64,000 bases of DNA, from contig OZ241993.1 in NCBI GenBank assembly GCA_965204575.1, forward strand, positions 1 through 64,000. The letters are read 5' to 3'. The notes under the pieces are model-generated. The model ran no database searches and was not told the origin of the DNA. It worked only from the letters and a program-made list of their open reading frames with translations. Below are positions 4,152-43,465 of the stretch, piece after piece; within the stretch, counting starts at the first letter, position 1, and every line of letters begins with the position of its first letter. The position numbers and the translations under genes are program-made. This DNA is from an uncultured candidatus Porisulfidus sp. (GTDB lineage Bacteria; Pseudomonadota; Gammaproteobacteria; Poriferisulfidales; Poriferisulfidaceae).

Positions 4152-4446
4152 TCTTGTCGGCCCTCATGCCGTTTATTGTCTCGCCATTGTACATAATTCT
4201 CTGACAGACCTTTCTTATGATCCTATTCCCCGGTTGTTCGGCGAACAACCGGCCTAACTACACATACTGAAAAGTATTTTCAATGTATCCGAACCGATTG
4301 ATTCTATTGTGATAAAGGGGGCATATTAGGAGTTTCTGATTTGAATCCGCCGGCGCGAGAATGGCGGGCCTGCTTTTGTCCGGAGGTCCGACATACACAC
4401 CGGGAGACTGATTTTCTCTCGCGTTTTGCCTCACCCCCCCTATATT

Positions 4447-4455
4447 ATTTCTAAT
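4447..4455 (+). other. Putative recombination site ATTT-CT-AAT, porin copy 1
   Basis: tATTTCTAATTGC; porin homology stops here. Confidence 0.6.
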
Positions 4456-6364
4456 TGCTTTGGCCCTGGCGGCGGCCCCGTTCGCAGCCCAAGCCGAAAC
4501 ATGGAACATATACGGCTGGCAGAACTATTCCTGGGAGTTCGTGGACGAAAAAAACAGTGGTCGCAGTTACGATCGAATTTCCGGAAACGCGGCCAACATC
4601 GGCTTCAGTGCCAACGTGGACACCGGCATGAACGGCATCCACGTCACTCTCCAGTGCGAGTCATGGACGCTCCACAATCACTGGGATGGTCAGGGTGGCT
4701 GGTGCACCCGCAACTCCAAGATCGGCCTGTCTCATCCCCAGATGGGCGAGATCATGTTTGCCACCTGGCTGCTGCCCTACAACGAGGGCGTGGCGCAGTG
4801 GATCGACCCGTTCTACGACGCGGGCGGGGACTCGCATACCAGCATCATGGGTTCGGTCGGTGGCTCTACCTGGTATCATTCTCCTGGCGACTGGAACAAT
4901 CGTTCCGACCCGGACCGACATCCCGACTATGCTACCGGTGTAGACACCGGCTTCAACCGTCGTCAGCAGGAGATCATCCAGTATTGGTCGCCGAACTGGA
5001 ACGGCTTCGTGTTCCGCTTTGCCTGGACTGCAGGATATGAAGATGAACAGCCGTGGGGAAGGAATAATGCCAAACTGGACCCGGTGATTCGCTCGTCCAG
5101 CCTGGCATACACCAACGGCCCATTGTGGTTGGCGGTGGCCTGGCAGGATCACGAGGACTGGACCGCTAGTCGGCAAAAAATTCGCGGAAAAATGGACGGT
5201 TCGGACGCGGAGAGCCTGCGCGTGGCGGGCCGCTACATCATGGACATGGGTGATGGCATGAGCGTTCAGATCTCGGCGATGTGGGAGACCCTGGAGTACG
5301 AGTTCAACGGCGTGACCAGCGTCGATGAAGTAATGGGAGCTTTCTATCTTGGTTCTTTCACCTCCACCTACGACCTGTATCACGACGGGAGCAAGATTGT
5401 CGGGACTCCGGCGGTTCCGGGTACTCCGGCTATGCAGGCCGAGGTCGACGAGAACGACGTCAAGGCTCAGAAGACCCTTGATCTTGTGCGTAAGTTGTTC
5501 TACAACCCAGACGCTACCAGCGAGGCCGCTCCTTATACACTCAAAACCGGTGTCGAGGGAACCGCGTGGGGTGATGTCACTACCCTTCTAGCGGCGGCCG
5601 GCTTTGCTCCGGCGGACGATCCCTTGACGGCGGCGGACGAAAGCAAGGCCGCGGGCAGTTGTGCTGCCACTACTCCCTCGACGTGTACTGACCTTAATCT
5701 CAACGTCTTGGCGGATACTGATACCGCTACTGCCGGGCAGCAGAATGTGCTTAAGGCTGCGATCGAGGCTCTGAACAACGCCCGCGACACGGTTCCGGAT
5801 GACAATAACGATGCGACAACCGAGGACGCAGGCATACAGCCTCCGAACTTGGACGTGGCTGTCGGCCAAACTGGCGCTGGCACTGTAGCTCAGAGAAACG
5901 CCCAGGCCCAATACGACCTTTTGGTCGAGATGGCTACAGCGGCTGCTGAGAAAAAAGCCGGGATGACAGAGGCTGTACCGGCCAAACCCGCAGTCAGCGC
6001 AGCTGCTAACAGAGCTGCAATGACTATGGGCGAGAACGTCAAGATCGAGCGCGACGCCTGGATGGTGTCCGGCAAGATCAAGTTCGGCGGTCCCATCGAC
6101 TTCCGCTTCTCCTACATGGACGCGGACGATCTTGAGGTCTCCTGCGCATCCTGCTCGGGCGACTGGGACGAGACCGCGGCCGACGCCTTCAACGTGGGCA
6201 TCTTCTACACCATGCCGGCCGGCACGGAACTGCGCCTGACCTACTCCGAAGTCAACAACGACGACAACGGCGCTTACGGTCAGGGTGTCACCGGTACCGG
6301 GATCGCCTCACCGGGCAATGAAATCGAAATGTTCGCAGTGGGCATCGTGCACTGGTTCGACTAA
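4448..6364 (+). CDS. Porin copy 1, silent cassette (no ATG/RBS/n-region) with variable central insertion
   Basis: IYG N-terminal strand, YWSPNWNGF, C-terminal GIVHWFD; frame begins FLIALALAAAPFAAQA with no Met-Lys-Lys or SD. Confidence 0.85.
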   Translation, partial: FLIALALAAAPFAAQAETWNIYGWQNYSWEFVDEKNSGRSYDRISGNAANIGFSANVDTGMNGIHVTLQCESWTLHNHWDGQGGWCTRNSKIGLSHPQMGEIMFATWLLPYNEGVAQWIDPFYDAGGDSHTSIMGSVGGSTWYHSPGDWNNRSDPDRHPDYATGVDTGFNRRQQEIIQYWSPNWNGFVFRFAWTAGYEDEQPWGRNNAKLDPVIRSSSLAYTNGPLWLAVAWQDHEDWTASRQKIRGKMDGSDAESLRVAGRYIMDMGDGMSVQISAMWETLEYEFNGVTSVDEVMGAFYLGSFTSTYDLYHDGSKIVGTPAVPGTPAMQAEVDENDVKAQKTLDLVRKLFYNPDATSEAAPYTLKTGVEGTAWGDVTTLLAAAGFAPADDPLTAADESKAAGSCAATTPSTCTDLNLNVLADTDTATAGQQNVLKAAIEALNNARDTVPDDNNDATTEDAGIQPPNLDVAVGQTGAGTVAQRNAQAQYDLLVEMATAAAEKKAGMTEAVPAKPAVSAAANRAAMTMGENVKIERDAWMVSGKIKFGGPIDFRFSYMDADDLEVSCASCSGDWDETAADAFNVGIFYTMPAGTELRLTYSEVNNDDNGAYGQGVTGTGIASPGNEIEMFAVGIVHWFD

Positions 6365-8907: not shown

Positions 8908-11247
8908 CGGCGTAAGCGTCATTGTGGCCAGAGCAGGCCCCGGCAGAAACGGGGTCGGCTTTCCTTCCAGCCAGTCGTTGTGCCCAGCGTTGTAGAACGG
9001 CGACAAGGGGTGGCCCGACTGCCCGGTGGGCATGTTCATGATTCCTTCTTCTTCTCGGCCGGGAGAAACAACCGTGCGATGTGAGGCCCCAAATGCCCGG
9101 TGTTCGACACGTGGAAGATTGAGGTCGCCAGACAAGGGGGATGATGGCGCATCCAGTAATCCTCCGAGAAACGGGAGGGCATGGGATAACGGGTGGCGGA
9201 TCCGGGCGTAGTTGCGTGCCCCCCAAGTCGCATCGGCCATGTCTCGTCCTCCCATTGTCATGTCTTCGATGGTCAGTTTCAGCGCAAGTGCCAGAAATTC
9301 ATCCCAATTCTGCATGCCCTTGGGCAGGAAATTCTGAGCCCCGCTGTCCAAGATGCGGGTCAAAGGACCGTCCAATTGCCACCGCAGGTGCCGGGTATGT
9401 CGGTCCGGGAACAAACCCAACCGGATCTGGAGTGCCAGCAGGAAGAGTTCGTGGGCGCGCTTCCGGAAGGTCCGAATAATCCGATAACCAACACTGTCGG
9501 CATTGCTGTGTCCATCCCATTCGGCAAGCCATTCGCGGATGCGGTGACGCTCCACCAGAGAAGCGATGCTGGCCTCGTTCATTGCCCGCTCCAGCCGGGG
9601 TCGCCATTCATCTAGGTAGTCGGCCCGATTGTCGCGCTGCAAAGCCAATAAGTCAGATTCGTTGAACGCGGTTTTTTCTCTCAAGCGATTTCGAATCTGC
9701 TGGGCCCGCATTCCAGAAGTGTAGCGGCCATCACCCAGCAACCCATACTGTTCGCCACCGATGTGGCGGCTGTTGGCCGACCAGAGACGCTGGCCGGGAG
9801 GGTTGAGGACTACAGGGTATTCATCCGGAGACAGCCACTGGGGGGCATGGCTTTCGAGCACATCGCTCTTGATCGGGGCCCGGCCGCTATAGCCTTTGCG
9901 TTTGGGCAAGGTCCCGGCAATGGTCCAGCCGATATTGCCTTCACGATCAGCGAGGAGAACATTTTGCCAAGGGATCGCGGATTGCTGGAACAAGGTCATT
10001 GCAGAGCGTAGGTCTTGTGCGACTTCGACTTGGCTGAAATTGATATGATCCCCTGTCAGCCAGTAAGAAGCCCAGCGCAAAGCACGCTTCCGGTTTTGGG
10101 AGTCCTCACTGACTACAGGTCCCCAATCAGAGACTTCGTATGCAAACTTCTCGTCCACTCCCAGGAGGACTTCCAGCACCTCCTCGACCATAGTCAGCGA
10201 AGGCTCCTCGGGGTCCAACACGATCAAGTCCTGGCTGTCCACATTGCTGTTGGTGAACCCCCAAGCGATTTGCCCGTTGCTGCCGGCAATCAGCCATGGG
10301 AGCCCCGGGAGGGTAAGGCCGCTGGCCATATGCTCCTTTCCGGCATCGCTCCATTGCCAATGCATCCGGTACCAGATATTTGGCACCAGCAGAACCAGAT
10401 GCATGTCGTTGGCAAGCAGGGCACTGCCGTGAGAGGTCAGTTCGCCGCTGACAGCGAAGGCGTTGCTACCGGGGTTTTCCCAGGACATCCGGACGTCTTT
10501 GAGATGTTCCGGATCTAGGGAAGTATCGCTCAGGTCTATTTCATGCGATTCGGGCACATGCGAGGCAAAAAGCGGTATCGGGGTGTCATCCAGCGGGGCA
10601 TCGTAGTGAGTTCCGACCGGTGCCAGGAAGTTTGCGACATCGGCTCCAAAGGTTTCATGCAGAAACCCCACTACGGAGTCGTATTTCCAGTGCCCGCCCT
10701 GGAGGACTAGGTGCATGGCAAAAAGTGACAGAATGCTGTCTTCCGGCTTCCACGGGTCGGGTCGGGATAGGAACAGGACATAGGGAAACGGCGAGACAGG
10801 AAGTGCGTCCAGCCCCTGGTTGACCCCTTCGGTATAGGCTTGCAGGATGGCATGTTCGGTTTCGGAGAGCCCGGCGACGATTTTCCGTGCCTGCTCGCGA
10901 AAACGATGAGGTCGGATTTCACGATCCTCTTCCAGAACAAAGGGTCCAAGCAAAGCGGCTAACTCGCCTGCGGCGAGCCGGCGGCGGGTATCCATGGATA
11001 GGAAGCGTTCCTGAGCATGGACGAATCCCGCTACCCGGGCAAGATCCAGTCGGGATTGAGCCTGGACCGTGGTATGTCCGATGGAGTCACGGGACACGGA
11101 AACTGGGAAATCCAGCCCTGAGATTGCGGCTGCGCCGGAAATCTGCGGGCGACTCAAATAAAGGGCCGCCGTCAAAGCTGAAATAAGGATGAGGATGGTA
11201 GCCAGCGCGACCCCCAGTGCCACACGCAACCGCTTGCGTCTTGCCAT
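8896..11247 (-). CDS. Penicillin acylase family (Ntn hydrolase)
   Basis: [39 protein letters not shown]. Confidence 0.9.
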
Positions 11248-13546: not shown

Positions 13547-15469
13547 TTAGTCGAACCAGTGCACGATGCCCACTGCGAACATTTCAATTTCTAAACCTGC
13601 CTTTCCAAGCCCAGTGCCAGAAATGCCCTGACCGTAGGTTCCGTTGTCGTCGTTGTTGACTTCGGAGTAGGTCAGGCGCAGTTCCGTGCCGGCCGGCATG
13701 GTGTAGAAGATGCCCACGTTGAAGGCGTCGGCCGCAGTCTCGTCCCAGTCGCCCGAGCAGGATGCGCAGGAGACCTCGAGGTCGTCCGCGTCCATGTAGG
13801 AGAAGCGGAAGTCGATGGGACCGCCCATCTTGATCTTGCCGGACACCATCCAGGCGTCGCGCTCGATCTTGACGTTCTGGCCCATAGTCATTGCAGCTCT
13901 GTTAGCAGCTGCGCTGACTGCGGGTTTGGCCGCTACGACCGGTGTCTTCCCAGCTTTGGCCTCAGCAGCATCTGTAGCTGCAGCGACCAGCGCCAGGTAC
14001 GCGACGTGAGCGTCTCTCTCATCCTGAGAACCGCCTGCAGTACCGTCACCGACAGCCGCAGTCAGATCCGGCGGCTGTACGCCTGCGTCTTCAGTTGTCG
14101 CATCGTTGTTGTCATCATCAACCGTGTCACGGGCATTATTCAACGCCGTGATCGAAGCCATGAGAGCTGTGCCGGTAGCACCTTCAGTGAGCACACTTGT
14201 GCCCCCGTTGCCTGCAACCGGATTGCCTTCAGCGTCTACGCCTTCATCCGCTTCGGTAGCAGGGTTGTCAGAGGTCGGTGGGACATAGTTAGGCAAAGAT
14301 GTGAGACCAGTAGGACATCCATTGGCATTATCGCCAGTCACGGCAGAGTTGTCATCGTCCCAACAGTTGGGGAACACCGTTCTCAGCAGGTCGATGGTCT
14401 TCTGCGCCTTGACGTCGTCCTCGTCAACCGGGACCTGCTCGCCTCCGCTCGCCGGAACCGCCGGAGTCATGCCGATGACTTCACCCGCACTATCCAGCAA
14501 GCTGTAGGAGGAACCGAAGTTGGAGTAGCCGAACGCAGTCATGGCCGCATCGACGTTGGTCACGCCGTTGAACTCGTACTCCAGGGTCTCCCACATCGCC
14601 GAGATCTGAACGCTCATGCCGCCGCCCATGTCCATGATGTAGCGGCCGGCCACGCGCAGGCTCTCCGCGTCCGAGGTCTCCATCTGGCCGACGGAAGCCG
14701 CGGTCCAGTCCTCGTGGTCCTGCCAGGTCACCGCCGCCCACACTGGGCCGTTGGTGTAGGCCAGGCTTGAGGAGCGGATCACCGGATCAGTGTCCTTGCC
14801 TGAGTCTGCCCCATACGAGGTTCCACCGTCATCGCGGTTACCGACGGTCCACGCGAAGCGGAACACGAAGCCGTTCCAGTTCGGCGACCAGTACTGGACG
14901 ATGCCTTCCTGGCGACGATTGAAGCCCGTGTCGTCGCCTGCCCCCGCGTAGTTGAACTCATCCCCAGCATAACCGGTGCCCGGCCCCGAGGCGGATGCCT
15001 GGAAGTCGAAGTCGCCGGTGTTGTAGAAGATGGTGCGGGCGCCGACCGAGCCCATGATGCTGGTATGCGATTCCGAGCCCGCGTCGTAGAACGGGTCCAC
15101 CCACTGCGCCACGCCCTCGTTGTAGGGCAACAGCCAGGTGGCCAGCATGATCTCGCCCATCTGCGGATGGGACAGGCCGATCTTGGAGTTGCGGTTGCAC
15201 CAGCCGGTGCCGCCCGCGAAGTGGTTCACGTACATGAACTGCTCGCACTGGACGTTGACCGAGAGGTCGTTGAAGCCGGTGGGCACGCTTGCGCGGAAGC
15301 CGATGTGGGCGGCCGCTCCCTCTATGCGGTCGTAACTGCGGTCAAAACCCGCCGCCTGCTCATCCACGAATTGCCATGAATGGTTCTGCCAACCATAAAT
15401 GTTCCATGTTTCGGCTTGTGCGGCAAACGGTGCTACAATCAAAGCCAAAGCAATTAGAAATGGTTTTTT
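13547..15469 (-). CDS. Porin copy 2, silent cassette (TAA in place of start codon)
   Basis: Minus strand TAA AAA AAA CCA TTT CTA ATT GCT TTG; same conserved barrel segments; ends GIVHWFD. Confidence 0.85.
   Translation of the reverse strand, partial: KKPFLIALALIVAPFAAQAETWNIYGWQNHSWQFVDEQAAGFDRSYDRIEGAAAHIGFRASVPTGFNDLSVNVQCEQFMYVNHFAGGTGWCNRNSKIGLSHPQMGEIMLATWLLPYNEGVAQWVDPFYDAGSESHTSIMGSVGARTIFYNTGDFDFQASASGPGTGYAGDEFNYAGAGDDTGFNRRQEGIVQYWSPNWNGFVFRFAWTVGNRDDGGTSYGADSGKDTDPVIRSSSLAYTNGPVWAAVTWQDHEDWTAASVGQMETSDAESLRVAGRYIMDMGGGMSVQISAMWETLEYEFNGVTNVDAAMTAFGYSNFGSSYSLLDSAGEVIGMTPAVPASGGEQVPVDEDDVKAQKTIDLLRTVFPNCWDDDNSAVTGDNANGCPTGLTSLPNYVPPTSDNPATEADEGVDAEGNPVAGNGGTSVLTEGATGTALMASITALNNARDTVDDDNNDATTEDAGVQPPDLTAAVGDGTAGGSQDERDAHVAYLALVAAATDAAEAKAGKTPVVAAKPAVSAAANRAAMTMGQNVKIERDAWMVSGKIKMGGPIDFRFSYMDADDLEVSCASCSGDWDETAADAFNVGIFYTMPAGTELRLTYSEVNNDDNGTYGQGISGTGLGKAGLEIEMFAVGIVHWFD
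13623..14773. repeat. 1151-bp inverted repeat with 22097-23247
   Basis: By eye identical except one SNP (VDEDD vs VDDDD); alternate-frame ORF translations agree. Confidence 0.85.
15453..15461 (-). other. Putative recombination site, porin copy 2
   Basis: Minus strand CATTTCTAATTGC, 13/13 match to the predicted RNA guides. Confidence 0.65.
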
Positions 15470-15539
15470 TTACTTTCGACAGTCTTGAAAACCCTTCGAA
15501 AAGGCTCTGGCGGTCCCGTATACTGGACTTCCAGCCGGG

Positions 15540-16463
15540 ATGGTCTGCTGTCGCTCTGTGTCTGACCCCGCACACCTTATAAAGTTCAGTCGAGCACGAT
15601 TGAGCGGCCGGCAGATTTCGGAACTGTTGGGATTGTGCAAGGGTCTGATCGCCGACGGGCGAATCACCCAGAGTGAAGCGGAATCGCTTTACGCTTGGTT
15701 GATAGATCAGGAACAATCAGGGCTCCCTCTTGTCCAGACCTTGCAGGCGCGGGTCGGGCAAATGCTCGGAGACGGTGTTCTGGATGCCGATGAAAGTGCG
15801 GAGCTGATGCGGTTGATTCGCGCCCTGATCGACCACCGCGCGGAAGCGGGAATCCCTTTGAGCCGTCGCGGCATGCGGACCAACAGGTTGGACGATTACC
15901 AGGTTTCTGCGTTGCTGGGGCTATGCCGGGGTCTGATCGCCGACGGCAAAATCAATCAGAGCGAGGCGGATGCGCTCCACACTTGGCTGGCGGCCCACGA
16001 AGAGACGGCAGAGAATCCGGTGATGGCGACGTTTAAGGAGAAATTGAAGGATTTTTCCCACGAAGAGACTAAAAACAGCAGTAAAAACATAGAGCTGTTG
16101 AAGCTGCTCGATGGGCTGGTTGGAGGCAAGACGGAAGTCGGGGAATGCCTTCGTGCCACAACCTTATGGCTGGACGACCCACCGCCGGAAGTCCAGTTCG
16201 AAGATCGAAAGTTCTGCCTGACCGGCAAGTTTTCCCACGGCAGGCGCCGGCAGTGCGAGGATGAAATTCGAGCCCGCGGGGGAAGCTGCCAGCAATCCCC
16301 GGCAAAGACGACGGACTACTTGGTGATCGGATCCTACGCCGAAGGCACCTGGATTCAGTCCGCGTACGGGCGCAAGATCGAAAAGGCCGTGGCGCTGCGT
16401 GCCAGCGGTCTGCCCGTTCGGATCATCTCCGAGACACACTGGCTTGCAGGCCTGCGGCAATAA
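15540..16463 (+). CDS. BRCT-domain protein with duplicated TerB-like N-terminal helical domain
   Basis: Two LLGLCxGLIADGxIxQSEA repeats; C-terminal FCLTGKF...TDYLVIG...YGRKIEKA...IISETHW; start uncertain. Confidence 0.8.
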   Translation: MVCCRSVSDPAHLIKFSRARLSGRQISELLGLCKGLIADGRITQSEAESLYAWLIDQEQSGLPLVQTLQARVGQMLGDGVLDADESAELMRLIRALIDHRAEAGIPLSRRGMRTNRLDDYQVSALLGLCRGLIADGKINQSEADALHTWLAAHEETAENPVMATFKEKLKDFSHEETKNSSKNIELLKLLDGLVGGKTEVGECLRATTLWLDDPPPEVQFEDRKFCLTGKFSHGRRRQCEDEIRARGGSCQQSPAKTTDYLVIGSYAEGTWIQSAYGRKIEKAVALRASGLPVRIISETHWLAGLRQ

Positions 16464-16619
16464 TCTTGGGATCTGTACAGGTTCACAGAATACGAGACAG
16501 GACCAGGTCTTGTTCGACATACAACGGATTTCGCCAAGCCACCGTGGCTCCCTCAATCATCACTCGTTAAAAATCGCGAGAATTATGTAGCAAAATCCCC
16601 AAGCGCGGATATAGGCAGC

Positions 16620-16820
16620 TTATTTCCAAACATTAAAAGCAAGGATTCCCAAACCGATTACAGTCGCAATTACCCAAGCCCCGATCTTTATCAAGGTATC
16701 TTTAACCCACTCTCTTATAGCCGTATGTTTGGCGTTTTCTTCCAGAACACCGACCCGTTCATGTATGTCTTTTTTTCTGGCGTATTCTGAAACGCCTTGG
16801 CGTTTTTCCCGCGGAGCCAT
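16620..16820 (-). CDS. Small protein with C-terminal transmembrane helix
   Basis: 66 aa, charged N-terminus then IGAWVIATVIGLGILAF; 2 bp from upstream ORF. Confidence 0.55.
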   Translation of the reverse strand: MAPREKRQGVSEYARKKDIHERVGVLEENAKHTAIREWVKDTLIKIGAWVIATVIGLGILAFNVWK

Positions 16821-16822
16821 AA

Positions 16823-17083
16823 TCAGTCAAGCCAATCCCACAACTTGCCGTCAAAGAAGCCGTAATAGGTATGGTTTATCTTGATTACAACGCCGTTCTT
16901 GGGGTTGTCGCTATCAAGGATACCTAGTTTCAACGCGACTATTTCAGCCACCAATTCCGTGCGGACCAGCAAGGTTTCCTTGCCGAGCCGGTAGCTGTCC
17001 TCAAACAATTCCTCGGCCACAGATTGAACATCTGTGTCCACAGAATAAACGACGTAAACCCGCTTTTCTGCTTCATCTGGCAT
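16823..17083 (-). CDS. Hypothetical 86-aa protein
   Basis: Compact alpha/beta pattern ending YYG...LWDWLD; operon-like with 16620-16820. Confidence 0.6.
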   Translation of the reverse strand: MPDEAEKRVYVVYSVDTDVQSVAEELFEDSYRLGKETLLVRTELVAEIVALKLGILDSDNPKNGVVIKINHTYYGFFDGKLWDWLD

Positions 17084-17129
17084 AGTGCAATCTTATCATG
17101 TCGACCTGTCAATTTCCTTGCGGATTTTG

Positions 17130-17969
17130 CTACATAATCCCCAAAATCGCAGGGCAGTCCAGATCTATGTCATGGTTAACCGTTAATTTCCACTTGGGAT
17201 TATCTATGTACGGTCTGGGATGAATTTCATCAAACCAGGAAACGGGAGGCCTGAGGAGCTTTACTGATCTTGCCTCTTTGGCAAAAGGCTCCAGCACCTC
17301 GGCTTGGCGTGCGTGCCCAACGAAATCCAGTAGGTAGCCGAGCCGGCGCACTGTGGAATTTTCGTAGTTTGAAGCGACATCCGCCAACTTCTTGGGTTCA
17401 GCCTTCATGCCCATGTCTTGGATGATTTGGGCCAAATTGTCAAAGCCGGCAACTTTTCGGAGATAACGGGCTCAATCCAGCAAGGTCACTTCTACGCCGC
17501 TCGCTTTGGCTTTTTCGCCCAAGCGACCTTGAACCGGCATGAGCCAATCCGGTCGATTTGTTTTCTCGAACATCGATGGAGCCTGAAAGACGAACCGGAC
17601 CTGGTTTCCATCGATGTCGAAGTCCCGCAGCTGCTTTGGCACGATGATCTGAAAGACCATGGGTGCCTGATGCGAAGCTCCGTGACAGCTGGCTGCGCCG
17701 AGCAAGCCAATCCGGTAATCCAGGCCTATATGCTTCATAAGCGGGTCGACCCAGTCGAGCACATGAGGAACTTGACCTCTGTCTTCCGGGCGTAGGATCA
17801 GGTAGAAACCACGGCGGGGAGACGCCAATCGACGCTTTTTGAGCAACCGACCCGCCGCCGCGATAAACGCCGAGGATTTCATGTCCAGCACTTTCAATGC
17901 CTCTTTCTTTGAGAAAAAAGCATGCCCTTGTGCTAGACGATCATCAAGGTATTGGCTCAATGCGGCCAT
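17130..17969 (-). pseudogene. Type IV TA antitoxin AbiEi with in-frame nonsense codon
   Basis: RRGFYLI, GLLGAASCHGASHQ, TLLD-TGA(17472-4)-ARYL..., RRLGYLLD continue in one frame. Confidence 0.75.
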
Positions 17970-18037
17970 CCCCCAATCATATACGAAAATAAGGGAATGT
18001 AGCGAAATCCGCAAGGGTGGTTAGTTGGGGGGCAAGG

Positions 18038-18256
18038 CTAATGAGAAGTCAATTCGATTCCAAGATAGCTTTCGACAATCCGCACTTTTTCTGGTGAATA
18101 CATTCCGTTTTAATCGGGGTCTGGCACCTGTATCACACGGTGATTTTCATTTTGCCAGAAGGTGGCAGTTTCCGTTCTCTCTTCTGATTTTTTGTAACCC
18201 ATAGCTGCCACCTTCTGATGTAGTTCTTCCTTCGACATCCAGCGATCATAGGTCAT
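18038..18256 (-). pseudogene. HicA-like toxin with internal stop
   Basis: MTYDRWMSKEELHQKVAAMGY...FWQNENHRVIQVPDPD-TAA(18110-2)-NGMYSPEKVRIVESYLGI; ATGA overlap with upstream gene. Confidence 0.5.
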
Positions 18257-18564
18257 GCTGGCACCAGACAAAATTCTTTATCTGACAAAACAAAAGAATC
18301 CTCTCTGATTTCTTGCTCGACCGTAGAATGATCCTCGGCCATGTGTGCCAGAAAATCATCCAGGGAAATAGCGGTTTCCACATTAAATTCACGTCCGGTC
18401 TTGATTTTCAGTATTTTTTTTATCGACGGAACCAGTTGACGATAAACTGTTGCTGCGTCTTCATTGGCCACCAGCAGCCCGTCGAGATCATCGGAAGTGA
18501 ATATGTGATGATCGTGCTCGAAGCGGTAAAGCACCTTTATCACCGCAACGGTTGATGACGACAT
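18253..18564 (-). CDS. HicB/DUF1902-like antitoxin
   Basis: IFTSDDLDGLLVA motif; SD AGGAG before ATG 18564. Confidence 0.6.
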   Translation of the reverse strand: MSSSTVAVIKVLYRFEHDHHIFTSDDLDGLLVANEDAATVYRQLVPSIKKILKIKTGREFNVETAISLDDFLAHMAEDHSTVEQEIREDSFVLSDKEFCLVPA

Positions 18565-18829
18565 TTTCTCTCTCCTGTCAATTAACGCCGAACACGCCGC
18601 ACTGCAAAGCGACCTGGTAAGCGGTTGAATGGCATGGTCTTTGTCCCGATTAATAAGGGACAATTCATGTTATCACAGGGCGGAAAAATTGAACAAGCGA
18701 CGGCGGCTGGTGACGGCGGCTGGCCAGGAAATAGTCAGCCAGACCTTGCAGATTTTGCTACATATTCCCAAGATATCTGCATATGATCGGGGAAGGAGCA
18801 ATAAGCTTAAGCTTTATTTGCACCTAGAA

Positions 18830-19050
18830 CCGGGCGCAGAAATCAGGATACCCCAACCCTTTGCAACAGCAGACCATCCAAGACTCGGGTTGGTTACCGA
18901 TGCGGTCTGTAGGAGTCGCGGAGTCAAGCCTTTGTCTAATTGCATGGATCACGATGCCAGACATGCCGCTTGGGCGTGAACGGCTTCGCACCGATGTAGA
19001 AATGCCAAGGGTTCTCCGACAGACTGGAGCATCCTGGTTTCTGCGGCCGG
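18830..19050 (-). ncRNA. Putative bridge RNA with guides matching the porin junction site
   Basis: 26-bp closing stem (19025-19050/18830-18855, 24 pairs including two G-U on the minus strand); guides CATTTCTA (19004-18997) and GCAATTAGA (18943-18935) flank an internal hairpin. Confidence 0.7.
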
Positions 19051-19066
19051 ACTTTCAATCAAGTAA

Positions 19067-20239
19067 TCAAGCCTCCTGCGTTACGCGGCTGATGCGGGAT
19101 TTCTCATGGCAAACGATGTCCCAGACAAATCCCGTCAATTCCCGTGCGATCGCGACGCAAACCACTTTCTGGTTCTTGCCTTCCGCGATTAGTTTCCGAT
19201 ACCGCCCGCACAGTCGTTTTTGCGCCTTCCACGCGATGGCCTGGGCATAGGCGGAAGCGCCTTCCGCCTTGCGGTTCATGTAGGCGGTCTGGCGGGCTGG
19301 AAACCGGTAGCACCAGGCCGACTCGACCAGCACCTGCCGGGCGTGGCGGTTCCCTGCCTGCGTGACGCCGCCGGTACGGCGGTGTGCTCCGGAACTGTAG
19401 ACACAAGGCACCAGCCCCAGATAACCCATCAACTGGTTGGGAGACCCGAAGCGGCTGATGTCGCCCAGTTCGGACAGCAGCGTGACCGCGGACAACTGGT
19501 CGAACCCGCGCAACGCCATCAGGCTGTTGGCCAGCGGCGCCCAGGACCAACCCCGCAGGACCTGGCTCAGTTTTTCATCCAGGTCGATCATGCGCGAGGA
19601 CGAAAGACGCACGGCCGCAATGTACTCGTCTCGGACTTCGGCCTGATAATCATATGAAAAATCAAGGCTTTCCAGCCATTCGAGATGTTTCTGCGTCCAG
19701 CGCTTCCGGTTGGTCGGCCAATGATGCCCGTGGCGCAGCACGAAGGCATTGAGCTGCTGGCGCAACTTCTGCTGTTGCGCCTTGAAGTCGGCGCGACAGC
19801 GGCACAGGTCGCGGACCGCTTCCTGTTCCTGGTCCGGCACCCAGACCTCGACCAACTCCCCGGCGCGCAGAAGCCGTGCCAGGCGCAACGCGTCCCTGCG
19901 GTCGGTCTTGATCTTTTCATTGCGCGGCGGGGCCACGACCTGGCAGTCCATGCCCATCGCGGTCAGGCTCTGGTACAGGGTGTACCCGCAAGGCCCGGCC
20001 TCGTAGCAAAGCAGGAAGGTTTCTTTTTCCGAATACAGCCGGTCGACGAGTTTGGCGACCGCTTTTTTCGTATTCGGTATGGTGCCCCAGGACTCGGGGG
20101 CTTCCCGACCCGCGTAGGCGACGGCGACGGCGATGCTGTCCTTGTGGACATCGAGTCCGACGTAGCCTGCGTAGGGTTTGGCGTGAGCCGAGTGGTCGGA
20201 AGGAGGGGTTCCGGCGGTTTCGGGGGGCTGTTGTTCCAT
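19067..20239 (-). CDS. IS110-family (Piv/DEDD) recombinase
   Basis: YVGLDVHK, CYEAGPCG, KTDRRDA, GYLGLVP..YSSG, AIAREL; SD GGAG before ATG 20239. Confidence 0.93.
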   Translation of the reverse strand: MEQQPPETAGTPPSDHSAHAKPYAGYVGLDVHKDSIAVAVAYAGREAPESWGTIPNTKKAVAKLVDRLYSEKETFLLCYEAGPCGYTLYQSLTAMGMDCQVVAPPRNEKIKTDRRDALRLARLLRAGELVEVWVPDQEQEAVRDLCRCRADFKAQQQKLRQQLNAFVLRHGHHWPTNRKRWTQKHLEWLESLDFSYDYQAEVRDEYIAAVRLSSSRMIDLDEKLSQVLRGWSWAPLANSLMALRGFDQLSAVTLLSELGDISRFGSPNQLMGYLGLVPCVYSSGAHRRTGGVTQAGNRHARQVLVESAWCYRFPARQTAYMNRKAEGASAYAQAIAWKAQKRLCGRYRKLIAEGKNQKVVCVAIARELTGFVWDIVCHEKSRISRVTQEA

Positions 20240-20484
20240 TGTTATCTCTCCTTGAAATCGGGGTGTATGAATAAACACTGGGAGCGGGTCCGAGTGCAGT
20301 AGTCTGGGCCACGATGAGAGACAACTCTCACGAAATGTTGATGGTCGTCTTCGGTTTATGGCCAACACATGATTTAGTCCTATTTCAAAGAGGTCAGTTC
20401 AGGGGAAATCGGAAAGAGGGGCAAGAGTTGACTTCCATTCAGACTAGTCGTATAATCTAGTCTAAATTTTGAGGGGAGGCAACA

Positions 20485-20727
20485 ATGAAAACGATCGGAG
20501 CCTATGAAGCCAAGACGCATCTGCCCAGGCTGCTTGACCGTGTGGCGCACGGCGAGCATCTGACTATCACCAAACACGGCAAACCCGTTGCCCAACTGGT
20601 GCCTGTCACCACAAGGGAAGAGCGCGCACAGGAAGCGATTGACCGCATCACCGAACTTCGCCGGCACATCAAGTTGGCGCCATTGGCAGAATTGATGGCC
20701 ATGACTCACGAAGGGCACCGCTATTGA
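20485..20727 (+). CDS. Phd/YefM antitoxin
   Basis: IGAYEAKTHLPRLLDRV...ITKHGKPVAQL; palindrome AGACTAG-N9-CTAGTCT at 20441-20463. Confidence 0.9.
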   Translation: MKTIGAYEAKTHLPRLLDRVAHGEHLTITKHGKPVAQLVPVTTREERAQEAIDRITELRRHIKLAPLAELMAMTHEGHRY

Positions 20728-21137
20728 TCGTCGTAGATAACTCCGTTTTCCTCGCCTGGTGCGTGGGCGAGGAAGAGGAAAGTGGCTTGGTTGCGGCCGA
20801 GACGGTCCTGCGCGTTGCCAATGAAGGCGGCGTCGCGCCGCACATATGGTGGTATGAATTCCGCAATGCGCTTCTGATGAATGAGCGCCGTGGACGCATT
20901 TCATCCGAGCAGACGTCAAGAATCCTGGCTGCCGGCCTTGCACTGAACGTAGAGGTTGACGAAAACCACGATGAAACACAACTCCTCGATTTGGCCCGCC
21001 GGTTCGACTTGACTGTCTATGATGCCGCATACTTGGAGGTTGCCTTCCGGCGTAGCCTGCCTCTGGCGACTTTTGACCGCCGCCTGAGCAAGGCGGCAGA
21101 AGCCGTCGGGGTTGCTGCAGTCCACCACGAGGTTTAA
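20724..21137 (+). CDS. vapC: VapC PIN-domain toxin
   Basis: IVVDNSV, YEFRNAL, LTVYDAAYLE, LATFD. Confidence 0.88.
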   Translation: MIVVDNSVFLAWCVGEEEESGLVAAETVLRVANEGGVAPHIWWYEFRNALLMNERRGRISSEQTSRILAAGLALNVEVDENHDETQLLDLARRFDLTVYDAAYLEVAFRRSLPLATFDRRLSKAAEAVGVAAVHHEV

Positions 21138-21160
21138 GAGTTCCGAGAGGTGAAAAAAAG

Positions 21161-21452
21161 CCATTTCTAATCGCCACGGCTTGGGTTTCGGTTCCGCTCG
21201 GGGTCCCAGTTGGGGTGGTTGTCATGAGCCGTTGTTTTTTAGAAACGGAAAAGGCTGGGCATCGGATTTCCCGTTGATTCTCTGTAGTTGTAAAAAAACA
21301 ACATTGGGAAGATTTGACAATTCTGCAAAGGCATAGACAATTCGCACTTGAATATGGCAGTTTTGCCACATTCCCGTGGGGAATGATCACCCTGCGGAAT
21401 TAGTAATATTTTTAGGAGTCCTAAAAAATGAAAAAACCATTTCTAATCGCCA
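21161..21452 (+). other. 276-bp porin promoter/RBS/ATG module bounded by 16-bp direct repeats
   Basis: CCATTTCTAATCGCCA at 21161-21176 and 21437-21452; CT cores at 21167 and 21443. Confidence 0.7.
21314..21418 (+). promoter_or_regulatory. Porin promoter, hairpinned 5' UTR and RBS
   Basis: TTGACA 21314-9, GACAAT 21336-41 (16-bp spacer), hairpins TGGCA/TGCCA and CATTCCC/GGGAATG, AGGAG 21414-8. Confidence 0.6.
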
Positions 21453-23323
21453 TGGCTTTGATTGTAGCACCGTTCGGTGCGCAAGCAGAGACGTGGAACA
21501 TTTATGGTTGGCAGAATCATTCTTGGGAGTTTGTGGATATCGACGGCGGACGCAGCTTCGACCGGATCCAGTCCAACGCGGGCAACATCGGATTCGCGGC
21601 GAGCGTGCCCACCGGCTTCAACGACCTCTCGGTCAACGTCCAGTGCGAGCAGTTCATGTACGTGAACCACTTCGCGGGCGGCACCGGCTGGTGCAACCGC
21701 AACTCCAAGATCGGCCTGTCTCACCCGCAGATGGGTGAGCTGATGCTGGCCACCTGGCTGCTCCCTTACAACGAGGGCGTGGCGCAGTGGGTCGACCCGT
21801 TCTATGACGCTGGCGCGGACTCGCATACCAGCATCATGGGATCGGTCGGTGCCAATACCATCTTCTACAACACTGGTGACTTCGACTTCCAGGCATCCGG
21901 CTCGAGTCCGGGCTCTGCTCAGACCGAGTTCAACTACCAGGTTGGCGGCTACGACACGGGCTTCAACCGTCGTCAGGAGAACATCATCCAGTACTGGTCT
22001 CCGAACTGGAACGGCTTCGTGTTCCGCTTCGCGTGGACCGCTGGCAACCGCGATGAGACCCCTCACATGGGAGGGGAAATCGACCCGGTAATCCGTTCCT
22101 CAAGCCTGGCCTACACCAACGGCCCAGTGTGGGCGGCGGTGACCTGGCAGGACCACGAGGACTGGACCGCGGCTTCCGTCGGCCAGATGGAGACCTCGGA
22201 CGCGGAGAGCCTGCGCGTGGCCGGCCGCTACATCATGGACATGGGCGGCGGCATGAGCGTTCAGATCTCGGCGATGTGGGAGACCCTGGAGTACGAGTTC
22301 AACGGCGTGACCAACGTCGATGCGGCCATGACTGCGTTCGGCTACTCCAACTTCGGTTCCTCCTACAGCTTGCTGGATAGTGCGGGTGAAGTCATCGGCA
22401 TGACTCCGGCGGTTCCGGCGAGCGGAGGCGAGCAGGTCCCGGTTGACGACGACGACGTCAAGGCGCAGAAGACCATCGACCTGCTGAGAACGGTGTTCCC
22501 CAACTGTTGGGACGATGACAACTCTGCCGTGACTGGCGATAATGCCAATGGATGTCCTACTGGTCTCACATCTTTGCCTAACTATGTCCCACCGACCTCT
22601 GACAACCCTGCTACCGAAGCGGATGAAGGCGTAGACGCTGAAGGCAATCCGGTTGCAGGCAACGGGGGCACAAGTGTGCTCACTGAAGGTGCTACCGGCA
22701 CAGCTCTCATGGCTTCGATCACGGCGTTGAATAATGCCCGTGACACGGTTGATGATGACAACAACGATGCGACAACTGAAGACGCAGGCGTACAGCCGCC
22801 GGATCTGACTGCGGCTGTCGGTGACGGTACTGCAGGCGGTTCTCAGGATGAGAGAGACGCTCACGTCGCGTACCTGGCGCTGGTCGCTGCAGCTACAGAT
22901 GCTGCTGAGGCCAAAGCTGGGAAGACACCGGTCGTAGCGGCCAAACCCGCAGTCAGCGCAGCTGCTAACAGAGCTGCAATGACTATGGGCCAGAACGTCA
23001 AGATCGAGCGCGACGCCTGGATGGTGTCCGGCAAGATCAAGATGGGCGGTCCCATCGACTTCCGCTTCTCCTACATGGACGCGGACGACCTCGAGGTCTC
23101 CTGCGCATCCTGCTCGGGCGACTGGGACGAGACTGCGGCCGACGCCTTCAACGTGGGCATCTTCTACACCATGCCGGCCGGCACGGAACTGCGCCTGACC
23201 TACTCCGAAGTCAACAACGACGACAACGGAACCTACGGTCAGGGCATCTCCGGTACCGGACTGGGTTCGCCTGGTGTGGAGATCGAGATGTTCGCAGTCG
23301 GTATCGTGCACTGGTTCGACTAA
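21428..23323 (+). CDS. Porin copy 3, the only complete (expression-site) copy
   Basis: Full signal peptide MKKPFLIAMALIVAPFGAQA, SD, intact frame to GIVHWFD. Confidence 0.92.
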   Translation: MKKPFLIAMALIVAPFGAQAETWNIYGWQNHSWEFVDIDGGRSFDRIQSNAGNIGFAASVPTGFNDLSVNVQCEQFMYVNHFAGGTGWCNRNSKIGLSHPQMGELMLATWLLPYNEGVAQWVDPFYDAGADSHTSIMGSVGANTIFYNTGDFDFQASGSSPGSAQTEFNYQVGGYDTGFNRRQENIIQYWSPNWNGFVFRFAWTAGNRDETPHMGGEIDPVIRSSSLAYTNGPVWAAVTWQDHEDWTAASVGQMETSDAESLRVAGRYIMDMGGGMSVQISAMWETLEYEFNGVTNVDAAMTAFGYSNFGSSYSLLDSAGEVIGMTPAVPASGGEQVPVDDDDVKAQKTIDLLRTVFPNCWDDDNSAVTGDNANGCPTGLTSLPNYVPPTSDNPATEADEGVDAEGNPVAGNGGTSVLTEGATGTALMASITALNNARDTVDDDNNDATTEDAGVQPPDLTAAVGDGTAGGSQDERDAHVAYLALVAAATDAAEAKAGKTPVVAAKPAVSAAANRAAMTMGQNVKIERDAWMVSGKIKMGGPIDFRFSYMDADDLEVSCASCSGDWDETAADAFNVGIFYTMPAGTELRLTYSEVNNDDNGTYGQGISGTGLGSPGVEIEMFAVGIVHWFD

Positions 23324-36452: not shown

Positions 36453-36782
36453 ATTCCCTCCTGATTCTCACCCGGTCCTCCAATACTGACTTTAAATCAG
36501 TCGGTAGTTTGAATTTAAATTGGTCGGAAATGGTTTCCTGGATATTCGTTCTGCAGTCCAGAATCTGTACATGCCTGAGTAAAATCATCTTATATCATTG
36601 TTAAAAAAGTAATTTACTAGATTTATCTCCAACATGACTCCTGCAAATAAATCCCTTGGCTCCATACGGAAAACTCGTTTATATTCTTCGCTGAAATGAG
36701 CAAATGCAAGCCAGAATTTAAATTAGCCAATACCTTTACATAATATTCCAGACTGCCCCCCTTTACGAAGTAACTCAATATT

Positions 36783-36791
36783 ATTTCTAAT
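36783..36791 (+). other. Putative recombination site, porin copy 4
   Basis: tATTTCTAATCGC; homology to copy 3 starts here. Confidence 0.6.
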
Positions 36792-36847
36792 CGCCATGGC
36801 TTTGATTGTAGCACCGTTCGGTGCGCAAGCAGAGACGTGGAACATTT

Positions 36848-38195
36848 GGGTCTTCACGGAATTGTGTGGAACGGAGGTCTCGGATACAGGTCGAGTCCGC
36901 CCAAGTGAAAGTAGATGGCTTCACGGAAGCGCTCGCGGCTGCGGTAGCCGCAGGCTTGGCGTTTGATCCACTGCACTTTCGCGTTGATGGATTCCGACAG
37001 GGCATTGCTGATGCCCAGCACGGCGGCGTTCAGGATCTCTTCCACATGCTTCCAGATCGTCTCCGCCGCCTTGATCACCGGGGCCAGCCGCGAGCGTTTC
37101 GCCGCCTGATGCCAGGCTTCCCAGGCGTAGTAGGCCAGGGTCCGGTCGCGCAACGCCCAGATCTCCGCCGCCCGTTCCTTCAGGATCCAGGCCCGGGCCA
37201 CCTTCAGGTCCTCCTTGCGTAACGCTTCCAGACGCTGGCGCCGGGCCGGGCCCATCCGCTCCTCGGTCATCAGCCAGTCGAAACGGGTGCCCGCCAGGCG
37301 GGCATCGCCTTGCGCCAGCAACCTCTTGTGCTCCGCCCGGCGCACCTGGTCCACCGCCTGGTTGAGCAGGCTCACCACATGGAAGCGGTCGATGCAGATG
37401 TCGGCCTGGGTGTACTTCAGGGTCGCCGCGATGTAGGCCGGCGCCAGATCCATCGCGGCCGTCTCAACCTGCGCGCAGGCGGCGTCGCCCAACTCTCTGA
37501 AAAACGGCTCCACCGCTGCCTGATCCTTGCGGTCTCCCACATACAGCACCACCCCCTTGCGCCCGGACGCCGGCTTCTGATCGACCACGATCGAGACATA
37601 TTCATGCCGCTTCTGGAACGAGGTCTCGTCGATGCCGATCCGCTTCGGTGCCTGCGGCCCGCGTCGCGCCAATCCGCGCCGCACCGCCCGCGAGCGGATG
37701 CCGTCCGCCTGATGCCAGCTCAGCCCCCACTTCTGCGCCACCGCCCGCAGCGGCATCGCCAGCAGGTCCTCGATCACCTCCGTCTCGAAGCGCATCGTGA
37801 AACGACCGTGGGACTCCGCCCACGGCACCGCGATCTGCCGAATCCCGTGCTCCGGGCAGTTCGCCCGCGGCACCTCGGCCCGCAAGGTCGTGCGCCAACC
37901 CATCAAATCCAGGTCCCGCCACTCCCGCGCCTTCGTGTCGTGCCGCTTGCACAAGGTCCCGCATTCCGGACACGGCACCAGGCTCTTCGCCTGATAGGCC
38001 AACTCGATCGTGACGCGCCCCGGGCTGCGATCCTCGCCTCCTTCCCGACAGGACACCGAGACCACCTCCCACGGCGGATGCAGAAACATCAGCATCTCGC
38101 AAAACTTGTTCACTGCTTCCATCAGACCACACTCCAGACTAAAACGCGGAAGCATTATCCCTGACCCTCTATTCCACACAAAACCGTGATGCGCC
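36848..38195 (-). mobile_element. ISL3-family element, 1348 bp
   Basis: 24-bp imperfect terminal IRs (19/24) and 8-bp TSD GAACATTT at 36840-7 and 38196-203. Confidence 0.93.
36854..38122 (-). CDS. ISL3 transposase
   Basis: CPECG zinc finger, RIGIDETS, AMDL, DRFHV, SESINAKV...GYRS. Confidence 0.95.
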   Translation of the reverse strand: MEAVNKFCEMLMFLHPPWEVVSVSCREGGEDRSPGRVTIELAYQAKSLVPCPECGTLCKRHDTKAREWRDLDLMGWRTTLRAEVPRANCPEHGIRQIAVPWAESHGRFTMRFETEVIEDLLAMPLRAVAQKWGLSWHQADGIRSRAVRRGLARRGPQAPKRIGIDETSFQKRHEYVSIVVDQKPASGRKGVVLYVGDRKDQAAVEPFFRELGDAACAQVETAAMDLAPAYIAATLKYTQADICIDRFHVVSLLNQAVDQVRRAEHKRLLAQGDARLAGTRFDWLMTEERMGPARRQRLEALRKEDLKVARAWILKERAAEIWALRDRTLAYYAWEAWHQAAKRSRLAPVIKAAETIWKHVEEILNAAVLGISNALSESINAKVQWIKRQACGYRSRERFREAIYFHLGGLDLYPRPPFHTIP

Positions 38196-40046
38196 GAACA
38201 TTTATGGTTGGCAGAATCATTCTTGGGAGTTTGTGGATATCGACGGCGGACGCAGCTTCGACCGGATCCAGTCCAACGCGGGCAACATCGGATTCGCGGC
38301 GAGCGTGCCCACCGGCTTCAACGACCTCTCGGTCAACGTCCAGTGCGAGCAGTTCATGTACGTGAACCACTTCGCGGGCGGCACCGGCTGGTGCAACCGC
38401 AACTCCAAGATCGGCCTGTCTCACCCGCAGATGGGTGAGCTGATGCTGGCCACCTGGCTGCTCCCTTACAACGAGGGCGTGGCGCAGTGGGTCGACCCGT
38501 TCTATGACGCTGGCGCGGACTCGCATACCAGCATCATGGGATCGGTCGGTGCCAATACCATCTTCTACAACACTGGTGACTTCGACTTCCAGGCATCCGG
38601 CTCGAGTCCGGGCTCTGCTCAGACCGAGTTCAACTACCAGGTTGGCGGCTACGACACGGGCTTCAACCGTCGTCAGGAGAACATCATCCAGTACTGGTCT
38701 CCGAACTGGAACGGCTTCGTGTTCCGCTTCGCGTGGACCGCTGGCAACCGCGATGAGACCCCTCACATGGGAGGGGAAATCGACCCGGTAATCCGTTCCT
38801 CAAGCCTGGCCTACACCAACGGCCCAGTGTGGGCGGCGGTGACCTGGCAGGACCACGAGGACTGGACCGCGGCTTCCGTCGGCCAGATGGAGACCTCGGA
38901 CGCGGAGAGCCTGCGCGTGGCCGGCCGCTACATCATGGACATGGGCGGCGGCATGAGCGTTCAGGTCTCGGCGATGTGGGAGACCCTGGAGTACGAGTTC
39001 AACGGCGTGACCAACGTCGATGCGGCCATGACTGCGTTCGGGTACTCCAACTTCGGCACCTACGACCTGTATCACGACGAGAGCAAGATCGGAGCGACTG
39101 AGGCGAGTGGAAGGGCTCCTATGCCGATCGAGCCAACCGAAGACCAAGTCCAAGTCAAGGCTGAGATGACCCTTGAACTTTTCTGGGATCTGTTCACCGA
39201 TGGCGAAGATACCCCGGCGATAAACACTCTCGTCGCTGACTCCGACGGCGCTGCAATCACTGTCCCTGCCCTTCTGTCACCTGCGGCAGACAATCCTCTA
39301 ACGGCCGCGGATGAAAGCAAGACGACCGGTTGTAGTGCTGCCACGGCCGCTGTGGAAATGTGTAATGGCGGTCTCAACGTCTTGGCGGAGCCTGGCGGCA
39401 CCAACGCACTGAGGACTGCGGTCGAAGATCTGAACAATGCCCGTGATATGGATAGCACGACGGATGGTATTCAAGCGCCAGACCTGACAGTGGGTGCAGA
39501 TGCTGGTACCGTTGCCGAGGGTGATAGAGTCGGCGGCACTGTGGCTCAGAGAAACGCCCAGGTCCAGTACCGGCTGCTGGTCGACGCAGCCACAGCCGCT
39601 GCTAAGGCAAAGCTTGGAATGACGGAAGATACCCGTATGCCAGCACGCACTGAAGCAGAGAACAGAGCTGCGATGACTATGGGCCAGAACGTCAAGATCG
39701 AGCGCGACGCCTGGATGGTGTCGGGCAAGATCAAGTTCGGCGGCCCCATCGACTTCCGCTTCTCCTACATGGACGCGGACGACCTCGAGGTCTCCTGCGC
39801 ATCCTGCTCGGGCGACTGGGACGAAACCGCGGCCGACGCCTTCAACGTGGGCATCTTCTACACCATGCCGGCCGGCACGGAACTGCGCCTGACCTACTCC
39901 GAAGTCAACAACGACGACAACGGAACCTACGGTCAGGGCATCTCCGGTACCGGACTGGGTTCGCCTGGTGTGGAGATCGAGATGTTCGCAGTCGGTATCG
40001 TGCACTGGTTCGACTAATCCAGTCAGCCAAGGCACACCTTACAAAG

Positions 40047-43456: not shown

Positions 43457-43465
43457 ATTTCTAAT
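43457..43465 (+). other. Putative recombination site, porin copy 5
   Basis: aATTTCTAATatt; in-frame TAA just upstream. Confidence 0.55.

Follow-up and report, generated by a model that had tools for sequence, protein, structure and literature searches.

A probable porin switch built from a host-retained IS1111/IS110-type recombinase and its guide RNA in the sponge symbiont Candidatus Porisulfidus

Candidatus Porisulfidus comprises sulfur-oxidising symbionts of sponges. The window considered here covers the opening 64 kb of a genome from this genus (G000), which forms one contig of 1.82 Mb. It contains five porin-like bodies, spread between 4.4 and 45.2 kb and found nowhere else in the genome. 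Between two of them lies a gene for a recombinase of the IS1111/IS110 type, followed directly by a structured RNA of the bridge (or seek) type. Recombinase and RNA appear to have been domesticated from a mobile element, and they probably now work as an invertase that switches among several porin cassettes.

The recombinase gene runs on the minus strand from an ATG at 20239 to a stop codon at 19067 and encodes 390 residues. Its product matches PF01548 (2e-17) and PF02371 (3.3e-18), which correspond to the N-terminal DEDD/RuvC-like domain and the C-terminal transposase domain with its conserved serine, and it scores 234 bits against the NCBIfam model NF033542, ‘IS110 family RNA-guided transposase’, for which the cut-off is 140. 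Judged by these matches, assignment to the IS1111/IS110 family is unambiguous. An earlier interpretation of this DNA, made from its letters without database searches (the sequence-only reading), had described an intact DEDD and serine recombinase, and this is borne out by the motifs DVHK, CYEA, KTDRRDA and GLVPCVYSSG, all of which are intact. A phmmer search of the recombinase against PDB chains, including the solved IS621 chains, returned nothing at E<=0.01. A domesticated gene was predicted to be single-copy, and this one has a single match in its own genome rather than the several copies expected of an insertion sequence (IS).

When G000 was compared with 15 other species genomes of the genus (16 in total), recombinase orthologues were found in 12 of the 15 congeners, one per genome, at 70-93% identity. 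Across all 13 orthologues 184 of 395 alignment columns are identical, and the motifs DVHK, CYEA, KTD.RDA and VYSSG are invariant. Relative to G000, dN/dS is 0.04-0.15 at dS values of 0.5-1.9. By this measure the recombinase is under purifying selection across the genus, which points to its long retention by the host. In a quick phylogenetic tree the 14 domesticated rows form a single clade (SH-aLRT 100) nested among mobile elements, and the mobile elements nearest to this clade have normal ends and flank matches.

The RNA, of 221 nt, occupies 19050-18830 on the minus strand, where the sequence-only reading had placed a stem-closed RNA. Its fold z-score is -4.0. A 29-bp stem closes the molecule around two domains, one with the target loop and a second corresponding to the former donor loop. 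An RNA lies downstream of the recombinase in every one of the 12 congeneric orthologues. A consensus structure derived from the 13 orthologous RNAs alone has 65 pairs, with 96.1% of cells paired, and 28 pairs are double-changed, compared with 10.8±2.3 in shuffled alignments (0 of 500 as high) and at most nine in slid controls. Rfam 15, at gathering thresholds, has no match anywhere in the window.

Within the first domain is an internal loop of 10+10 nt (GGCAUUUCUA / CAAUUAGACA), capped by a variable hairpin. The 5' side, GGCAUUUCUA (18997-19006, minus strand; alignment columns 47-56), carries the guide CAUUU and the core CUA in the sense of the porin coding strand. The 3' side, CAAUUAGACA (18933-18942, minus strand; columns 112-121), carries the guide CAAU and the core UAG, complementary to that strand. 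The stems and the apical hairpin vary among the 13 orthologues and the loop segments are invariant: AUUUCUA is present on the 5' side in all 13 and AUUAGA on the 3' side in 12, the remaining RNA (G004) having GUUAGA, which still forms a G-T wobble with the site. The guide segments are located as first proposed, CAUUUCUA at 19004-18997 and GCAAUUAGA at 18943-18935. The possibility that a fold model would place them outside the target-binding loop had been allowed for; instead, they are the two sides of one internal loop that is supported by covariation.

The guide positions had originally been calibrated on an orphan RNA at 1608-1392 (minus strand; z = -7.2), and this is indeed a homologue. The closing codons of a truncated IS110-type transposase stand ahead of it, which marks it as the 3' remnant of a decayed element. 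Because its two loop sides disagree on a common core, it is more likely to be dead than to act as a second guide. Further upstream, in flanks reaching to about 1800, the putative start of a TnpB-like open reading frame (ORF) can be made out by eye only.

Only one of the five porin bodies, copy 3 (21428-23323, plus strand; 631 aa), is joined to a promoter, a ribosome-binding site (RBS) and an ATG. Its start codon, at 21428, is the sole porin start codon with an RBS, and it is preceded by a promoter-like TTGACA-16-GACAAT at 21314-21341 (plus strand), a consensus match only, within a region (21228-21438) that relatives conserve to 83-84%. Codons 4-7 of copy 3 contain the 9-mer ATTTCTAAT at 21439-21447 (plus strand), the site of the expression locus. 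From this 9-mer onwards the other copies resemble copy 3; leftward of it their sequences differ and have no in-frame start. Copy 1 (4447-6364, plus strand) is a silent cassette with its site at 4447-4455, exactly where homology to the other copies begins. Copy 2 (13547-15461, minus strand), also silent, has the only minus-strand site, at 15453-15461, and the ‘left’ sequence upstream of it (GTAAAAAAAACC) has no ATG. Two further silent copies lie on the plus strand. Copy 4 (36783-40017; site 36783-36791) is split at about 36860-38200 by an ISL3-family IS, whose 441-aa transposase (PF01610, PF14690, PF13542) is present in three identical copies in the genome; copy 5 (43457-45217; site 43457-43465) is shorter. 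Copies 1 and 2 match Porin_4 and copy 3 falls below the Pfam threshold. Four of the five bodies have no start codon, with frames open over 530-634 aa.

In the 1.8-Mb genome ATTTCTAAT occurs nine times (2.7 expected), and six of these occurrences are in the porin region, at the five cassette junctions and at a bodyless site. In the recombinase-bearing genomes, protein similarity identified 30 porin 5' ends, and all 30 carry it. At these ends the third-codon positions within the 9-mer are invariant and the following third positions vary, a profile that is supporting and illustrative only, as the set of sites was chosen by the motif itself. The array thus has the anatomy of a shufflon: one expression site with a promoter and 5' end, several bodies without them, and junctions that all carry an identical short site, facing either way.

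The bodyless site (21163-21171, plus strand), specific to G000, is flanked on the left by GTGAAAAAAAGCC and on the right by only 5 nt of porin-like sequence. Its left arm is start-like (a GTG plus one extra base, out of frame), and the site precedes the expression site by 276 bp, in direct orientation; G008 lacks the stretch 21127-21229. This site may be the scar of an aberrant event or a means to excise the promoter. Some non-expressing left arms, at sites in G009 (L032, 8362) and G010 (L033, 8912), do contain an ATG, but with five consecutive A rather than six, so that the porin is not in frame. Variation in the number of these A residues could provide a second, slipped-strand layer of switching.

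The register in which the RNA should be read was calibrated on 80 relatives from metagenome contigs, of which 79 have 43-64% identity and one is an orthologue. Loops were located in 65 of the 80. Exclusion of the orthologue (L084) and of ten loci whose P3 helix is non-canonical and whose loops were probably mislocated left 54. Among these, the left flank was readable at 20 loci and the right flank at 27, a count that retains some clearly misidentified right ends. The mobile relatives whose ends and donor heptamer were read, and which entered the tree, include G346, which is flagged as unpublished and on which no conclusion rests. In the relatives the 5' side of the loop reads G, six variable positions and CUA, and the 3' side G, four variable positions, UAGA and two more nucleotides. 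Thus, the guide segments picked out in G000 by the sequence-only reading are the hypervariable positions around a family-wide core.

Mobile relatives end in TAGACAT.ATG on the left and CATATC-AG on the right, and their insertion flanks match the same hypervariable positions. The 6-nt right flank agrees with the reverse complement of the 5' loop side at 84 of 162 positions over 27 loci (permutations, 40.9±5.7), and the 4-nt left flank agrees with the 3' loop side at 41 of 80 positions over 20 loci (permutations, 22.3±3.9); in each case none of 2000 permutations did as well. Ten right flanks match at five of six positions, the outermost always being mismatched. An IS621-like strand order gave no match in the flank test, and inspection of the ends by eye showed the order to be reversed, as described for IS1111 elements (PMC11187229). 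In the calibrated register the G000 RNA codes for CATTT-CTA-ATTG, which matches at 12 of 12 positions at copy 2 and at 10-11 of 12 at copies 1, 3 and 4 and the bodyless site, a match at least as good as that of the mobile relatives to their own insertion sites. An AG/CT core dinucleotide, as found here, has been reported for ISPpu9 (PMC12288879) and for IS621.

The target initially deduced was a 13-mer, CATTTCTAATTGC, and its matches were confirmed, with no mismatch at 15450-15462 (minus strand), one mismatch at 4446, 21162 and 21438 and two at 36782; copy 5, at 43457, matches at 9 of 13 positions, counted by eye. These five matches compare with 0.88 expected, and one of 100 shuffles reached five. 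The full extent of the 13-mer fared less well. ATTTCTAAT, and usually CATTTCTAAT, is invariant in guides and sites across species; the outer positions vary, and a check for covariation between guide and site found none beyond the invariant 9-10 bp.

Several features set the unit apart from its mobile relatives. The second RNA domain contains the heptamer ATMTCAG in all 8 of the IS-type RNAs and in none of the 13 domesticated ones. This heptamer has the same sense as the mobile right end CATATC-AG, which identifies it as the donor guide of the mobile elements. The domesticated RNA therefore has no second loop matching its own ends, the donor loop of a bridge RNA. The second-domain loops of the domesticated RNAs vary freely between species, and a search of the window for other targets of the G000 loops found nothing beyond chance. 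The ends themselves survive as relics recognisable by eye, the right end at 18777-18790 (CATATGCAG, compared with CATATCAG in mobile relatives) and the left end at 20355-20381 (ATCATGTGTTGGCC, compared with ATCATGTTTTGACC in a mobile relative), both on the minus strand. The unit had been said not to sit in the porin target in the manner of an inserted IS, and this is the case: it is flanked by two complete inverted sites, not by split half-sites. With its single copy, its unsplit target, ends that are only relics and the same locus in seven genomes, it does not answer to the description of a mobile IS.

The segment between the inverted sites, 15462-21438, is the predicted invertible unit. It contains the silent left arm, a 307-aa ORF, a 2.4-kb insert specific to G000, the RNA, the recombinase, a Phd/PIN pair, and the promoter and ATG. 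In seven genomes (G000, G001, G003, G008, G009, G010 and G013) a porin body stands on each side of the recombinase and RNA, the two bodies being divergent. One end of the segment carries the promoter/ATG arm, the opposite end an arm without a start; six further contigs have the same downstream arm. The predicted synteny with porin arrays is accordingly found in seven of the nine genomes with enough context. Five genomes have a collinear backbone on both sides of the locus, and in three of these (G000, G001 and G008) the promoter arm faces one side, whereas in the remaining two (G003 and G009) it faces the opposite side. On this comparison of gene order, at least one inversion of the inter-site segment has taken place during evolution. 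A more dispersed arrangement is found in G015 (L054, G015:C1:816000-835000). Its porin cassettes, of which there are at least six, form two clusters, one 90 kb and the other more than 370 kb away from the recombinase, and it also has two bodyless ATTTCTAAC sites that have the same left arm as the cassettes.

The 307-aa ORF (15540-16463, plus strand) matches BRCT weakly, with an E of 5e-4 that falls short of the Pfam cut-off. It is present within the invertible segment in six of the seven linked genomes, being missing in G010, and could encode an accessory factor. The accessory DNA of the segment covers 16448-18828 and 20485-21137. The 2.4-kb insert has no match in the loci of seven relatives and holds an AbiEi-like ORF (17472-18014). 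The Phd/PIN toxin-antitoxin pair is also found in G008.

Heterogeneity within the population was sought in four sequencing runs, through their assembly contigs, and the arrangement in these is that of the reference. In runs X1 and X2 a single contig of 6025 nt spans 15444-21468 and ends within the repeats at both sites. Loose contig ends at 21439, 21494, 21503, 15444 and 15461 were considered as alternative junctions and are explained by other porin loci in the same genome. Similarly, a joint between 15000 and 21947 on ‘opposite strands’, considered as an inversion, reflects the similarity of copies 2 and 3. In run X3, from a second sample of the same organism, contig depth across 15444-21468 varies threefold (66, 16, 32) and there are loose ends at 17600, 17797 and 20796, which indicates strains that differ in the accessory insert.

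One member of the genus provides a natural control. The genome of G006 is complete and has no IS110-family gene, and ATTTCTAAT is present at 0 of its 4 porin 5' ends. Instead, its four alternating porins share another junction, which begins just before the ATG, and they encode K-K-T-S-L-I from different DNA. Between these porins is a gene for a 358-aa tyrosine recombinase (PF00589; L053, G006:C1:438000-457900, ORF 9460-10536, minus strand), found in only one of the 16 genomes and having no orthologue in G000 at E<=1e-30. The site therefore changes together with the type of recombinase, an apparent non-orthologous replacement of the invertase along with its site.

In the mechanism proposed, one locus would supply the promoter, RBS, ATG and first three codons to any of the five porin bodies, which share ATTTCTAAT at codons 4-7. 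The internal loop of the RNA would pair with both strands of a site around the CT (AG) core, CAUUU and CUA with one strand and CAAU and UAG with the other. Recombination between inverted sites would flip the intervening DNA and so join the promoter and ATG to another porin body, and successive inversions would put further cassettes in reach. Because the donor guide has decayed, both partner sites would have to be read by the target-type loop, so that two ribonucleoprotein particles would meet in a homotypic, loop-to-loop synapsis. The two-loop mechanism of IS621 (PMC11208158) is inapplicable because the donor guide is absent. Two observations on related elements bear on this point: a short seekRNA with target matches alone supports transposition of ISEc11 (PMC11187229), and in the DBL-DBL ‘half-match’ of IS621 two donor-type sites are recombined by the donor loop alone (10.64898/2026.08.31.748434). 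These make a homotypic target-loop mode plausible, not demonstrated.

The sequence-only reading had proposed a domesticated, RNA-programmed porin switch, and the comparisons support it, each prediction that could be checked having held; the recombinase would then catalyse the inversion, require its RNA and act in the homotypic mode. A wider picture is also favoured, if with less assurance, namely that of a natural RNA-programmed shufflon which no longer has a donor guide and uses one target-type loop to read both of the recombining sites. Such a system would act in trans on up to seven cassettes, including some more than 90 kb away, would vary the surface of an obligate sponge symbiont, and would be interchangeable within the genus with a version that uses a tyrosine recombinase.

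A number of observations weigh against the proposed switch. With the canonical two-loop mechanism unavailable, it depends on a homotypic target-loop mode that is not known from any member of the family. Five of the six G000 sites are directly oriented and alone would yield deletions, not inversions. The recombinase is unlinked to porins in G015 (more than 90 kb) and in G004 (separate contig). G003 and G009 group together in the tree, so that a single event suffices to explain the difference in orientation, and copies 2 and 3, with 92% protein identity over about 1.9 kb, are inverted repeats of a kind that can invert the DNA between them and thereby account for the same difference. No alternative junction was seen in the assembly contigs of the four runs, a weak result because such contigs drop rare variants. 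Finally, guide and site do not agree throughout: site position 11 as coded by the RNA is T in eight species, A in three and C in one, where the sites have T or C, and the RNA of G013 has lost the C of CATTT although the G013 sites retain it.

These disagreements bear on the best of the alternatives, in which the recombinase is the porin invertase, but recognises its sites via protein-DNA contacts, the RNA complementarity being a leftover of an ancestral target preference. Piv of Moraxella, a host-kept IS110-family DEDD recombinase that inverts DNA to switch pilin, has long been assumed to recognise its sites in this way. No covariation links the outer guide positions to the sites, and the donor guide has already decayed, hence parts of the RNA can drift. 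Nevertheless, the structure of the RNA has been maintained by compensatory changes across dS values of 0.5-1.9, its loop segments are unpaired yet invariant, and the A-to-G change in G004 retains pairing as a wobble. Leftover RNA sequence would not outlast such divergence without selection, and recognition by protein contacts is accordingly considered unlikely.

The inverted porins themselves suggest a second alternative, that inversions arise by RecA-dependent homologous recombination between them, with the recombinase and RNA as a passenger kept for some other reason. The similarity of copies 2 and 3 would suffice for this. However, the homology between cassettes begins at the same 9-mer in every copy and species, sites exist that have no body (21163 in G000; those in G015), the silent copies have no start codons, and the site is different where the recombinase type is different (G006). 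This makes a passenger role distinctly unlikely.

It is harder still to defend a static array, in which the porins are merely paralogues accompanied by pseudogene-like fragments and the 9-mer is conserved for the signal-peptide residues P-F-L-I. The 9-mer is coding sequence, and no population heterogeneity was seen in the assembly contigs. Against this reading stand the invariant third-codon positions at the 30 porin 5' ends (again, as supporting evidence only), the encoding of K-K-T-S-L-I with other DNA in G006, and four start-less bodies in G000 that are nevertheless open, and the absence of switching is regarded as very improbable. That an ordinary mobile IS1111-family element lies in the porin region by chance is scarcely credible: despite its unambiguous family and the visible relics of both IS ends, it is single-copy, whereas a true IS (ISL3) in the same genome has three identical copies, and it occupies the same locus in seven genomes, has lost its donor guide and is flanked by full inverted sites rather than split half-sites.

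The switch proposed here, driven by an RNA-guided recombinase, resembles well-known systems of another kind. In vsa/HvsR of Mycoplasma pulmonis and in the R64 shufflon with Rci, cassettes are inverted by tyrosine recombinases that read DNA directly. The porin array shares with these a single promoter-bearing 5' end, promoterless bodies, a short junction site and a recombinase encoded at the locus; within the genus, only G006 has a porin switch of the tyrosine-recombinase version. Piv and the porin recombinase are both IS110-family DEDD enzymes, Piv acting on two pilin ends and the porin system comprising several cassettes. To our knowledge, bridge and seek RNAs are known only from selfish insertion sequences and engineered genome editors. 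In the literature searched, no guide RNA for Piv turned up, nor any account of porin switching in Porisulfidus. The expectation that no such system had been described likewise stands for that literature, in which no host-retained bridge- or seek-RNA recombinase serving phase or antigenic variation was found; the supplementary tables of PMC11208160 and PMC11187229 may include the RNA subfamily.

Among characterised elements, the closest likeness is to the IS1111 elements with seekRNAs (ISEc11, ISPa11 and ISKpn4), which likewise combine DEDD and GL-P----SG motifs (PMC11187229) with an RNA downstream of the gene, and which have sub-terminal repeats at their ends, as do the mobile relatives examined here. 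Unlike them, the porin unit occurs as a fixed single copy within one genus, with ends reduced to relics and its donor heptamer lost. Its ‘target’ is a family of five to seven sites in the genome, which are found at porin 5' ends and face both ways, and the predicted outcome is inversion, not insertion. The same text places Piv in a short (315-330 aa) IS492/IS621 branch (PMC11187229); by size and description, the 390-aa porin recombinase with its downstream RNA points to the IS1111-like side and not to the Piv branch. With IS621 and IS110 elements (PMC11208160, PMC11208158) the porin system has in common the NF033542 family, guides on both sides of an internal loop and a 2-nt CT core. In IS621 the RNA precedes the gene and both of its loops, target and donor, are functional, whereas in the porin system it lies downstream and has a conserved guide in the target-type loop only. 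Inversion between inverted sites has been demonstrated for IS621/IS110 with engineered substrates (PMC11208160, PMC11208158).

If the proposed switch is real, it would be the first case in nature of a host employing a bridge-RNA recombinase, and would mean that bacteria have co-opted RNA-guided recombination for the regulation of their own genes, as has happened with other transposon-derived RNA-guided proteins. It would also provide a natural donor-loop-free enzyme-RNA pair dedicated to inversion (about 390 aa and about 220 nt) for engineering. The finding raises the question of whether long-known IS110-family invertases such as Piv are RNA-guided as well. For the symbiosis, it points to programmed porin variation in the reduced genomes of sponge symbionts, directed against phage or host recognition.

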